A stretch of 63,968 bases of DNA, counting the filler, from Thraustochytrium aureum (lineage: Eukaryota): assembly GCA_012862495.1 (NCBI GenBank). It is 9 parts of 6 records of this genome, joined end to end, with 100 filler letters (N's around TTAATTAATTAA, not from the genome) between each part and the next. Parts side by side here need not be neighbours in the genome. Positions count along the whole stretch, not along the records: positions 42,791 to 52,541 come from BLSG01000368.1; 8 more parts are not named here. The stretch is one strand, 5' to 3'. The number at the start of each line of letters is the position of its first letter. The stretch's first letter is position 1. Position numbers and translations under genes: made by a program. This document shows, piece by piece, positions 45,380 to 48,256 of this stretch. The notes beneath the pieces are model-generated. The model searched no databases. It was not told where the DNA came from and saw nothing but the letters and a program-made list of their open reading frames with translations.

Positions 45380-48256
45380 TCATTCCGGGGCCGCCGCGAG
45401 GAGCTCGTTGCCCGGGTCGATCTCGCGTAGCACCCGAAAGGCCTCGTCGTGCGAGCTGCCCCCTCGGATGATCGCCTCGATGAACGCAACGCACGCGGCC
45501 TTGTGCTCGGTCACACAGCATTTGACAAAGCCGAGAGCCTTGGCCACGAGGTCGACGTTGTCAATGTGGGACAGCGCTGATTCTTGGACGCGCTGGATGA
45601 CGCTCGGCGGAACTGCCAAGTTGGTTGAGCTCTTGATTCGGCAGAGCGCCAAGTAGACCTCCGCGACGAGGTCCGGCGTGTCGGCGCATAGGTCGAGCGC
45701 GCGAAGAACGTCTTTCTCGTACGACATGTTCTTTGCTGGAGCTCGGCGCAGTGCGGCGCAGACCGCAGCCGGGTTGGCAGCCATCCGGACGACCGCGAGC
45801 GAAACGATTTCATTGCTGGCACTCGCGCACGCCAAGACTTGGGCGTCAGAGAGCTTTGTGATCATCCGGGGATAGCGCGACACGACAATTTGCACAAGCG
45901 CGCTTTCTGGTGCGAGCATCTGGACCTGGGCGACCACAGCCTCATCCCACAGCACAGAGTCGGCGACGTACTGGAGAGCTTCCACATTGTTGCTGAGGGC
46001 GGCGAGCACGACGTCGCGGTCTGCGCGCAACGCGGGAGCGGCCTTGCCGAGGAGGCAGCCGTTTCGCGAGACGGCCGCAAGCATGACGTCGCGGCAGCCG
46101 TAGTGGTCCGGTCGCAAGCACGAGAGGGACGGCTCGACATTGCACCGAATGGCAGCGGCCAGGAAATCGTCGTCGCAATTTCTCAGCGCATTGCTTGCCG
46201 AGACCAGCTCGCGGACGTAGCTGTTTGGCGCCAAGGCAAAGAGGCCCGTGCCAAGCAGCTCGCTCGGCGGCGGCGTCGAGCTGTTCGGGCCGCCATCCGA
46301 AAAGCACTTGGCAGCCTCAAAGTCGTCCGGGCCGTCGCATGGCTTGCGAATCTCGTCGAGCGCAGCCTTTGCCGCGTACACGGCCTCAATGGCCGCCTCG
46401 ATGGACAGCCGAGCCGCCACGGCCTCGTCGGTCTCGGACAGGTCCAGGGCGTCTGCATCGTCGCGCAGAGCGGCCTCCATGCGCGGCGTGACGCGGTCGC
46501 AGTCGCCGCACGTGTGGGCGAGCACGGCGACGAGCAAGGCCTCGTCAATCGCGCACTGGAGGTCGCGGGCGTCGATTTGGTCGCAGGTAGCGCTGGAGGT
46601 GGCGCTGTCGATCGCATCGGCGGCCCTGCGTTCAAACTCTCGGAGGATGTTTGGCTGCGCCTCCAGCATGACAGCGGCCAAGGCGGCGTCGAGCATTTGC
46701 ACAACCCCGCCAAACCTGCTGAGGTTGAGAGGGATCTTGGACTCCGTAACGATCTTGTCGTGCAGGGTCGCTTTGATTGACGCGCACGCAGTTTCGATCA
46801 GCGCAGGCCCTTGCGCAGTAATGGCGGCTTTGAGATCTGCGCGCAGGCGAAGGCGCCGCAAAAGCGGCGCCCTCTCGGGCACGACGCCCAGGTCCACCGA
46901 GCACGCAAACAGCCGGGCGAGCTCAGTCGTGCAGAGGTTCAGAAACATGTCAGAGCCGCGCTCGACGCCCTCGACCAGATCCTCGACCGTGACGGTGCTG
47001 GGCTTTTTGCCAAGGTGCCAGAGCTTGGTCAGGAGACGCTGCAGCTCGGCTCGCGCGCGAGCGGTCTCGCTGTCAACCCAGCACTCGCGCATGTACGACT
47101 CGAGCATCTCGCCCAACGCCGCCAGCACCGCGGGCATGCCGTGCTTGGACGGGTCGAACTCGATCCCGTGCGAGGCGCAGCGCTCCTGCAGGACGCGGTG
47201 CTCTGTGGCGAAAGAGCCGCGCAGCGTCTCGGGCTCTTTGCGCGTCGTGTCGCGGTTGACCACAGGCACGATTGCGGCGATCCCCGCGTCGCGCGGAAAC
47301 TCGCGGCTCCCCGGATCCAGTCGATCTTTGAGGTCCTCGTCGCCGCCCGGCTTGTCGACCATGGTGAGCACGGCTACGGCCGGCTTGGCCGCCTCGCGCA
47401 GCAGTCGCCAGATTCCGTTGTTGCGCAGGCTCTGGGACCGGCCGGAAACCACGGCCAGCACGAGTGTGTGCGGCACGGCGAGCATGCGCTGCGTGAGCGC
47501 GACGGTGTCGTTGTGGGCCTTTTCGGGGGCGCTCACGATCCCGGGAAGGTCGACCAGGTCGATGGTCGGCACGTTCGGGGCGCGGATCTCCACCTGGACT
47601 TCGCGGTCGACCACAACGTTGTCCCCGTCGTCGTCCGGGTGGACCTCGCAGATGAACGCTTTGATCTCCTCGGCGACGCGCGAGGAGAAGGGCTCGTCCG
47701 ACTGGTCGCCCGTCTTGCACACGTACCGCTCCGACTCGCGCACCACCGTGTCGGTGTTGGTGTCCACGAGCCGGATCACCACGTCGTTGCAGTGCCGGTT
47801 GCAGCGCAGCATCAGCCGGACGGGCATGCGCGTGCAAAAGCGCTTGTCGCGGGGAAAGATCTCGCGCATGGCGATGCGCTCCAGCACGGAGGACTTGCCT
47901 TCGTTCTCCATGCCGCACACCATGATCTGCGGCAGCTGCAGCGAGAAGGACCCTCGCACCTTGACGACCGCGTTCAGCAGCCGCCGGTACGCGGCATGCT
48001 CGCCGCACAGCACCTGCGTGATGCCGCCGTGCATCTCGGCCTGTTCAGCCGCCGCGAGGTACCCGGCGCGCCTCTCGGCGGTCCGCAGTGTCTCGAGCGC
48101 ATCGTGGATACGGTCGCGGTCGCCGCCGACCAATTCGGCGTCGTGGTGCCGCAGAAAGGCCGCGCGCTCCACGTCGACATCCTCCAGCGCCGCGCGGCGG
48201 TCAAGCCCGAGCACGTCGAATGCGTCAAACCCCACAACCTGCCACTCGTCGCGCAT
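45380..48256 (-). CDS. Dynamin-superfamily GTPase with degenerate N-terminal J-like domain and C-terminal DUF4116-like and helical repeats
   Basis: LPQIMVCGMENEGKSSVLERI (G1), FPR...CTRMP (G2), LVDLPGI (G3), LTMVD (G4 variant); DAFDVLGL...DALETL..AERRAGY; DRDVVLAALSNN.EALQY repeats; intact intronless ORF. Confidence 0.88.
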   Translation of the reverse strand: MRDEWQVVGFDAFDVLGLDRRAALEDVDVERAAFLRHHDAELVGGDRDRIHDALETLRTAERRAGYLAAAEQAEMHGGITQVLCGEHAAYRRLLNAVVKVRGSFSLQLPQIMVCGMENEGKSSVLERIAMREIFPRDKRFCTRMPVRLMLRCNRHCNDVVIRLVDTNTDTVVRESERYVCKTGDQSDEPFSSRVAEEIKAFICEVHPDDDGDNVVVDREVQVEIRAPNVPTIDLVDLPGIVSAPEKAHNDTVALTQRMLAVPHTLVLAVVSGRSQSLRNNGIWRLLREAAKPAVAVLTMVDKPGGDEDLKDRLDPGSREFPRDAGIAAIVPVVNRDTTRKEPETLRGSFATEHRVLQERCASHGIEFDPSKHGMPAVLAALGEMLESYMRECWVDSETARARAELQRLLTKLWHLGKKPSTVTVEDLVEGVERGSDMFLNLCTTELARLFACSVDLGVVPERAPLLRRLRLRADLKAAITAQGPALIETACASIKATLHDKIVTESKIPLNLSRFGGVVQMLDAALAAVMLEAQPNILREFERRAADAIDSATSSATCDQIDARDLQCAIDEALLVAVLAHTCGDCDRVTPRMEAALRDDADALDLSETDEAVAARLSIEAAIEAVYAAKAALDEIRKPCDGPDDFEAAKCFSDGGPNSSTPPPSELLGTGLFALAPNSYVRELVSASNALRNCDDDFLAAAIRCNVEPSLSCLRPDHYGCRDVMLAAVSRNGCLLGKAAPALRADRDVVLAALSNNVEALQYVADSVLWDEAVVAQVQMLAPESALVQIVVSRYPRMITKLSDAQVLACASASNEIVSLAVVRMAANPAAVCAALRRAPAKNMSYEKDVLRALDLCADTPDLVAEVYLALCRIKSSTNLAVPPSVIQRVQESALSHIDNVDLVAKALGFVKCCVTEHKAACVAFIEAIIRGGSSHDEAFRVLREIDPGNELLAAAPE

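Follow-up and report, generated by a model that had tools for sequence, protein, structure and literature searches.

The window analysed here is a stretch of 63,968 nucleotides of Thraustochytrium aureum DNA, and its main subject is a gene for a dynamin-like protein of 958 residues, P0001, related to a lineage that was named in 2025 without a known function, the Phytophthora-associated DRPs (PADS). Within this known, functionally blank lineage P0001 is a new variant: it carries an apparently broken J-domain at the N-terminus, a GTPase site in which residues of the dynamin-1 catalytic switch are replaced, and a C-terminal appendage with DUF4116 repeats. Tentatively, it can be read as a fast-evolving, target-binding and slow-cycling dynamin that builds a cage or polymer, likely with a defensive role; since the active-site changes block fission in human dynamin, P0001 would probably clamp a target, possibly a viral one, rather than cut membranes. 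The gene is defined as follows.

45380..48256, minus strand: dynamin-like coding sequence P0001, 958 residues; a single open reading frame (ORF), PADS-related, with a J-like N-terminus and a repeat tail

The frame runs unbroken from the ATG at 48256 to the TGA at 45380, and its third-position GC content is 0.75-0.95 in the same frame over the whole length. Four sequencing runs (X1-X4), from two studies, were used for comparison; runs X2-X4 also cover the upstream non-coding DNA and, their RNA nature being only presumed, they were not taken as evidence of expression. A single X4 contig extends over 45486-47655, differing from the window by 24 substitutions and by no gap, and bridges the end of the GTPase domain, the stalk, the DUF4116 unit and the tail; thus, the fusion is real, and an assembly chimera as its origin is ruled out. 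Among the indels listed for the four runs none falls within the coding sequence, whose listed contigs are gap-free (19 further indels are outside that list), in contrast to the upstream non-coding DNA, where they are numerous. The rest of the window yielded no second dynamin; PADLOC gave no matches and NCBIfam only weak GTPase matches for P0001. No membrane helix is predicted for the protein, whose hydropathy over 19 residues peaks at 1.67, and it has neither a basic presequence nor a match to Pfam PH or GED.

Relationship to known dynamins

The nearest relatives of P0001 are three proteins from Hondaea, a two-GTPase-domain protein from a transcriptome, and proteins from environmental sequences; oomycete dynamins come next. 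From 114 extracted GTPase domains 11 near-duplicates were dropped, and in the resulting 103-row tree the 76 rows related to P0001 are split from 27 Dyn/Drp/Vps1/Mx/MxF rows with a support of 100/100; the split is supported at 100/99 in a 29-row tree that adds DRP4C, shark Mx and four viral dynamins, and in which the Mx rows are not monophyletic. On the 29-row tree, approximately unbiased (AU) tests rejected the grouping of the J-clade with the 6 Mx-type rows (p=0.000139), as well as that of the P0001 clade with the Dyn/Drp rows (p=0.000323). On this phylogenetic evidence, P0001 is neither an ortholog of the fission dynamins nor a member of the Mx clade. An initial annotation had described it as a lineage-specific, Mx-like protein with a layout different from housekeeping Drp1, Vps1 and OPA1: lineage specificity and the distinction from Drp1 and Vps1 are borne out, OPA1 lies outside the trees, and Mx survives as an analogy, since the protein groups with PADS instead.

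Indeed, P0001 groups with the PADS members TMW65229.1 (P0011) and KAF1774311.1 (P0204) at 100/100 in the 103-row tree and at 100/99 in the 29-row tree. Both proteins fall in a Phytophthora-rich clade of the supplementary tree of Langley et al. with a support of 99.4/100; this clade was equated with PADS through its members and the main-text description, as the supplementary files searched carry no label (PMC11789081). PADS are defined purely by phylogeny (Langley et al. 2025) and include giant-virus members (PMC11789081). Neither the text nor the supplements searched (12 of 19 for DnaJ) mention a J-domain, a change of the Q40 type or a function for PADS. Since OPA1, Mgm1, MidX and DRP5 are absent from the trees, these do not separate a position inside PADS from one as their sister group, and the term PADS-related covers both; in a PDB search with P0001, OPA1 and Mgm1 rank below Drp1 and Vps1. 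P0011 and P0204 share with P0001 the Glu in G1, the loop Arg and the TMVD sequence in G4; P0001 differs in being part of a distinct 26-row sub-branch (100/96), with a J-domain before the dynamin core and an appendage after it.

The three Hondaea fermentalgiana proteins (GBG25638.1, GBG30510.1 and GBG28587.1) are 40-42% identical to P0001 over 68% of the protein, and 60% identical in the GTPase domain. They have the same decayed J-domain and stalk but end 55-72 residues past the last helix, without DUF4116 and tail, and they differ in G4 (TRVD) and in the loss of Arg182. They are distinct from the sole Hondaea entry in the list of Langley et al. as far as that list was seen, and of their automatic annotations, Mx1 or Dynamin, the name Mx1 is unsupported by the tree. 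The presence of three close PADS-related paralogs in Hondaea represents turnover. Vertebrate Mx, fungal MxF and plant DRP4C resemble P0001 in paralog turnover and in a G-BSE-stalk fold (BSE, bundle signalling element) that lacks a PH domain, so that by analogy an antiviral role is possible for P0001; they differ from it in forming a separate clade, in keeping Q40, S41, D180 and the G4 Lys, and in having no J-like or repeat appendage. Dynamin-1, Drp1 and Vps1 provide the best PDB sequence and Foldseek matches and share the predicted G-G dimer geometry, but P0001 naturally bears the equivalents of the laboratory mutations Q40E and S41N and lacks D180.

An altered GTPase site

47171..47944, minus strand: dynamin GTPase domain, residues ~105-362; Pfam Dynamin_N, PDB matches to Drp1/Vps1/dynamin, Foldseek and VIA
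47888..47914, minus strand: G1/P-loop GMENEGKSS, residues 115-123; E117/N118 at dynamin-1 Q40/S41, K121 and S122 kept
47831-47833, minus strand: G2 Thr142, intact
47540..47551, minus strand: G3 DLPG, residues 236-239, intact
47414..47446, minus strand: trans-acting loop, residues 271-281; Ser276 at dynamin-1 D180, Arg278 at 182; in the predicted G-G interface
47354..47365, minus strand: G4 TMVD, residues 298-301; Lys replaced by Met, guanine-specificity Asp kept; Met299 predicted near partner residue 275

Pfam Dynamin_N matches residues 111-275 with 67 bits, and P0001 shows the hallmarks of the dynamin superfamily, namely the GTPase core residues (K121, S122, T142, D236, G239 and D301) and a BSE with a helical stalk, the latter two from an AlphaFold2 (AF2) model and VIA structural alignments. 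G1 to G3 had been described as intact; this applies to G2 and G3, while G1 is non-canonical, because Glu117 and Asn118 occupy the sites of dynamin-1 Q40 and S41. The departure of G4 from the usual TKxD was correctly recognised, since TMVD aligns to TKLD of human Drp1.

With dynamin-1 numbering anchored on a fish dynamin (G1 at 38-46, Asp at 180), Glu is found at the Q40 position in 74 of 122 aligned GTPase domains. D180 is kept in none of these 74 and Arg182 is present in 58, whereas 43 of the 47 domains with Gln40 keep D180 and a single one has Arg182. The second residue of G4 in the Glu-type domains is Met in 34, Lys in 30, His in 6, Arg in 3 and Gln in 1, and the G4 Asp is retained in 73 of the 74; the Met of P0001 is thus a trait of the PADS-related group and not a speciality of this protein. 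Among metagenome loci, G1 carries Glu in all 26 retrieved. In dynamin-1, D180 orients Q40 and S41 in trans; assembly-stimulated GTPase activity is severely reduced by Q40E and D180N and partly by S41N, and the Q40E protein self-assembles and tubulates, yet cannot drive fission (PMC3561337). Because equivalents of Q40E and of the loss of D180 are conserved group-wide, the PADS-related group may use a different catalytic cycle. In the open-access text searched, no prior description of a J-dynamin subfamily or of a Glu40/Arg182 switch was found.

The location of the altered residues was modelled with two copies of P0001 residues 76-400 in the presence of GTP/Mg. The dimer model scores 0.46 versus 0.00 for the best control, passing a mark that is reached by 21/30 solved pairs and 0/23 single chains (17/29 and 0/30, respectively, in eukaryotes); at least 88% of the contacts recur between runs, and pLDDT is no lower than 81. 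The predicted G-G interface includes residues 116-119, 271-281, 299 and 302-305, with contacts M299-Q275', E117-N279' and R278-switch II, so that E117/N118, the 271-281 loop and M299 are predicted to share one interface; the model indicates where the altered residues would sit, and not that a dimer is formed.

The J-like domain and the accessory modules of the family

48041..48226, minus strand: degenerate J-domain, residues 11-72, with four helices; the loop has RHHD/DAE and lacks HPD

The suggestion of a J-like N-terminus lacking HPD is upheld by a profile built from the J-domains of 13 relatives, which aligns to residues 11-66 of P0001 and gives its N-terminal 106 residues 22.3 bits, compared with a maximum of 6.9 bits for shuffled sequences (1000 shuffles, 932 reported). 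AF2 predicts four helices at residues 12-16, 24-37, 44-56 and 60-72, and the loop reads RHHDAEL at the HPD position. Pfam DnaJ itself does not match P0001, nor its isolated N-terminus at E<=1, and the assignment draws on profile, helix pattern and position. The Pfam DnaJ cut-off is passed at the same position by 13 relatives (2/14 and 11/58 of the proteins scanned), 10 of which keep HPD while 3 have it altered; the Hondaea paralogs, P0002 and P0006 have J-profile scores about as weak as that of P0001. In the 103-row tree the 7 rows without HPD form a group (100/90) whose sister is the HPD-positive P0007 (98/96), and all 12 J-bearing rows are contained in the 26-row branch. The simplest reading of these sequences is an ancestral J-dynamin fusion that decayed later in the P0001 branch, where the J-domain would be real but broken, i.e. 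homologous to four-helix J-domains with HPD lost. HPD replacement abolishes Hsp70 stimulation in the J-proteins tested (PMC13254874). Pseudo-J (type IV) proteins, such as Pam16, similarly display a recognisable J fold with HPD replaced (PMC13254874); unlike these, the J-like part of P0001 is fused to a dynamin GTPase and descends from HPD-intact relatives. A search of the literature found no dynamin-J-domain fusion in protists, judged by title or abstract start among the papers listed.

Accessory modules are swapped among the relatives, and comprise J, U-box, UBA-like, TAZ, NHL and WD40 domains, a second GTPase domain and FxFG motifs. The U-box, typical of E3 ligases, is N-terminal to the dynamin in five Glu-type proteins (P0029, P0169, P0175, L054:3-2453 and L061:156-2513), the first three of which lie within one 6-row branch (100/100). 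A UBA-like domain is present in P0192, TAZ in P0011, NHL in P0158 and WD40 in P0007; P0002 has two GTPase domains, the second with Gly at the Q40 position. The J-dynamin subfamily and these add-on modules would connect dynamin polymers with Hsp70 and with ubiquitin.

The same modules are also compatible with a role of the housekeeping type, which we regard as rather unlikely, though it deserves attention: P0001 could act in remodelling or as a scaffold in proteostasis, being a dynamin of the PADS type that assembles on an organelle membrane or a protein coat. Arg278 would then take over catalysis in trans, the ancestral J-domain would bring in Hsp70 to take the assembly apart, in the manner of auxilin, and the tail would serve for localisation. 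The full dynamin fold with all core residues kept, the conservation of Arg182, the ranking of Drp1 and dynamin as best sequence and fold matches, and the chaperone and ubiquitin pathways to which the relatives' accessory domains belong all speak for it. However, HPD is lost in the P0001 branch and altered in some J-bearing relatives, the tail is found in P0001 alone, the protein lacks a PH domain, a predicted membrane helix and a basic presequence, and the replacement-rich polymorphism described below is unlike that of housekeeping genes.

Nucleoporin-like FxFG motifs are found in 21 of 59 Glu-type proteins of at least 550 residues, versus none of 87 Gln-type proteins (18 cluster-mates set aside); five Glu-type proteins have two or more copies and four have three or more. 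The motifs of P0011, P0022, P0073, P0076, P0066 and others lie in low-complexity linkers, inside the stalk or past the last helix. This distribution, together with the importin- and HEAT-type solenoids among the many fold matches of the P0001 tail and the location of MxB near the nuclear pore (PMC11789081), could suggest a role of PADS dynamins in the pore or in nuclear transport, with P0001 using a karyopherin-like solenoid in place of FxFG. Such a role appears very unlikely, since P0001 has no FxFG, its tail resembles solenoids only in a generic way (Z 9-11, without a Foldseek match at E<=0.001), and many of the 21 FxFG proteins are close oomycete relatives or contain single motifs in folded regions. 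The literature search on oomycete dynamin FxFG and on thraustochytrid dynamins and viruses found nothing.

The stalk, the DUF4116 unit and the tail

46445..47140, minus strand: second BSE helix and helical stalk, residues 373-604 (AF2, VIA); no large insert at the PH position
46337..46444, minus strand: last stalk/BSE (GED-like) helix, residues 605-640, which ends most relatives
46139-46207, minus strand: weak third DUF4116 repeat, residues 684-706, sub-threshold
45959..46096, minus strand: DUF4116 unit, two repeats of ~25 residues, residues 721-766; Pfam 40-43 bits, own profile 65.8 bits
45383..45889, minus strand: orphan helical tail, residues ~790-958; predicted HEAT/ARM-like alpha-solenoid, with 7 of the 18 replacement polymorphisms

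The AF2 model of P0001, obtained from a 53-sequence alignment, has a mean pLDDT of 82, with values of ~85-97 over residues 80-640. By VIA, residues 86-640 of the model align to MxB, dynamin-3 and OPA1 with Z 21-24; for MxB, Z is 22.6 and root-mean-square deviation 15.9 over 492 aligned residues. The stalk closes with the helix at residues 605-640, in the AF2 model more narrowly 610-637, and most relatives stop within a few residues after it. DUF4116-like repeats had been noted at the C-terminus in place of a PH region: DUF4116 (PF13475) is indeed significant, with 40 bits against a gathering cut-off of 24.9 and 65.8 bits with a profile built without P0001, but there is only one Pfam unit of two repeats, and these do not replace the PH domain, because they come after a complete dynamin core. 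Donor-type DUF4116 proteins carry 11-16 units. The region is of low confidence in both AF2 models; DUF4116 has been modelled elsewhere as an alpha-solenoid (PMC8078820), and the open-access DUF4116 literature, as far as it was covered, states no function for it.

The C-termini vary among the relatives, for which a survey had been proposed in the initial annotation: DUF4116 is present in only one of 149 dynamins compared, namely P0001, and the ~300 residues that follow its stalk are absent from the Hondaea paralogs. That P0002 and P0006 share DUF4116 was tested and rejected. The predicted helical nature of the tail is also sustained: folded by AF2 from the single sequence, the last ~170 residues form a helical solenoid with pLDDT ~70-90. 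Its fold matches are limited to generic HEAT/ARM/designed-repeat solenoids (Z 9 to 11.7); the best score in the ESM Atlas is 0.78, Foldseek gave no match at E<=0.001, and there was no Pfam or sequence match, no homolog among 3642 candidates of 526-1677 residues, and no internal repeat by self-BLAST. These blank searches do not show a new fold.

Polymorphism

Between the window and the X4 contig, codons 202-923 of P0001 display 24 differences in 21 codons, 18 of them replacement and 3 silent. A Mtr4-like helicase from another scaffold, the one control gene on which the comparison rests, has 6 replacement and 17 silent changes in the same runs (Fisher p=9e-5 versus P0001), or 5:12 with run X4 alone (p=7e-4). 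Given at least one probable error in the window sequence, the test was repeated on the sites where X1 agrees with the window, giving 11:3 for P0001 and 3:10 for the control (p=0.007). The pN/pS ratio of P0001 is 1.3-2.4 versus 0.12 in the control. A signal of this type is seen in conflict genes.

The same data could arise if selection on P0001, as a redundant paralog, were relaxed and the gene were turning into a pseudogene, with DUF4116 and tail as the accidental capture of a mobile repeat, a reading that we consider unlikely. A pN/pS compatible with 1, a decayed J-domain, a single DUF4116 unit where donor-type proteins have many, and a tail seen in no other dynamin would all fit decay. On the other hand, the 958-codon frame is intact and no indel is listed in it, unlike in the upstream non-coding DNA, GC3 is steady, the end branch is of ordinary length (0.26, median 0.27), and the single-sequence prediction gives the tail a fold of good confidence.

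A possible clamp and its targets

Returning to the reading of P0001 as a target-clamping dynamin, the following mechanism can be envisaged. Having no membrane anchor, the protein would recognise a protein target, which may be viral, through the DUF4116/solenoid tail, and the stalk would drive oligomerisation around this target, as stalks do in dynamin and Mx. With the Q40-D180 switch in trans missing, hydrolysis would be slow, or triggered in trans by Arg278, and the polymer would persist as a cage. In the HPD-positive or U-box relatives this cage would pass its cargo to Hsp70 or ubiquitin, while in P0001 the J-domain would be a vestige or a binding surface. We infer that the protein works like Mx and that its repeats recognise a target, as first proposed from the sequence; the replacement excess and the swapping of modules lend support to this idea.

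Several observations weigh against it. The Glu/Arg pattern is a single inherited event, represented by many near-copies, and not an independent co-variation; moreover, the effects of the dynamin-1 mutations need not transfer to a co-adapted site such as that of P0001. The passing dimer score may reflect the dynamin G-G dimers already solved. As regards selection, pN/pS does not exceed 1 significantly (binomial p=0.32), the excess of replacements in the tail (7/18) is not significant (p=0.057), and silent divergence is lower in P0001 (0.005-0.009) than in the control (0.02-0.03), which fits well neither selection nor relaxation. The replacement excess fits diversifying selection or, equally, relaxed constraint, and the copy in the other runs could be a recent paralog. 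Finally, an alignment scan retrieved 38 viral dynamins that are only distant (19-29% identity in the best segments), none of which has a J-domain.

A broader proposal, which we regard as doubtful, is that PADS dynamins constitute a second protist-wide immune class, independent of Mx, in which a Glu/Arg/Met interface, acting as a clamp or as a trans arginine finger, replaces the Gln40-Asp180 trans switch found in every fission and Mx dynamin studied, and swapped sensor and disposal modules (the J-domain for Hsp70, U-box, UBA, TAZ, WD40, FxFG and DUF4116/solenoid) cage and destroy giant-virus structures; P0001 would then be one of its members, adapting fast and with a sensor tail acquired recently. 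If true, protists would own a second antiviral dynamin system. In any case, P0001 and its relatives provide the PADS lineage with testable properties.

Viral dynamins and genomic neighbourhood

A single-protein scan for a viral origin of P0001 found nothing. Among the 38 viral dynamins of the alignment scan, G1 has Gln in 37 and Glu in one, L002, which was excluded from the trees as no G3 motif was found in it. Two giant-virus dynamins have PADS-like traits: that of L002 (5093-5953), with the G1 Glu, and that of L010 (9944-12220), with TMAD in G4 and placed on a long branch close to the Glu group.

Several scaffolds are joined end to end in the window by linkers (N44, a 12-base spacer and N44) at 3853, 9905, 24432, 36462, 42691, 52542, 56413 and 62851; the scaffold of P0001 spans only about 42791-52541, and the genes farther off are therefore not its true neighbours. 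The window carries at least some sequence errors: in the Mtr4/Ski2-like helicase (19538-22005, plus strand) all four runs have one extra base at 20945, so the frameshift there is a likely assembly error. An ORF at 24916-28866 (minus strand) runs through N-gaps and contains protein kinase and D-glutamate cyclase domains; it may be two genes joined through the gaps. Upstream of P0001, 48413-48640 is a dispersed repeat: in all four runs its depth is strongly raised and loose ends are frequent; within the window it occurs once. The next gene upstream, on the same strand and scaffold (48826-51834, minus strand), encodes TPR_12/TPR_10 repeats of FxSxx-TPR-like type. Its N-terminal domain (FVSYSW...FWIDVLCLNQH) has no library match, and presumably resembles the HET/TIR-like effector domains of protists; this TPR gene is a possible immune-type neighbour of P0001.

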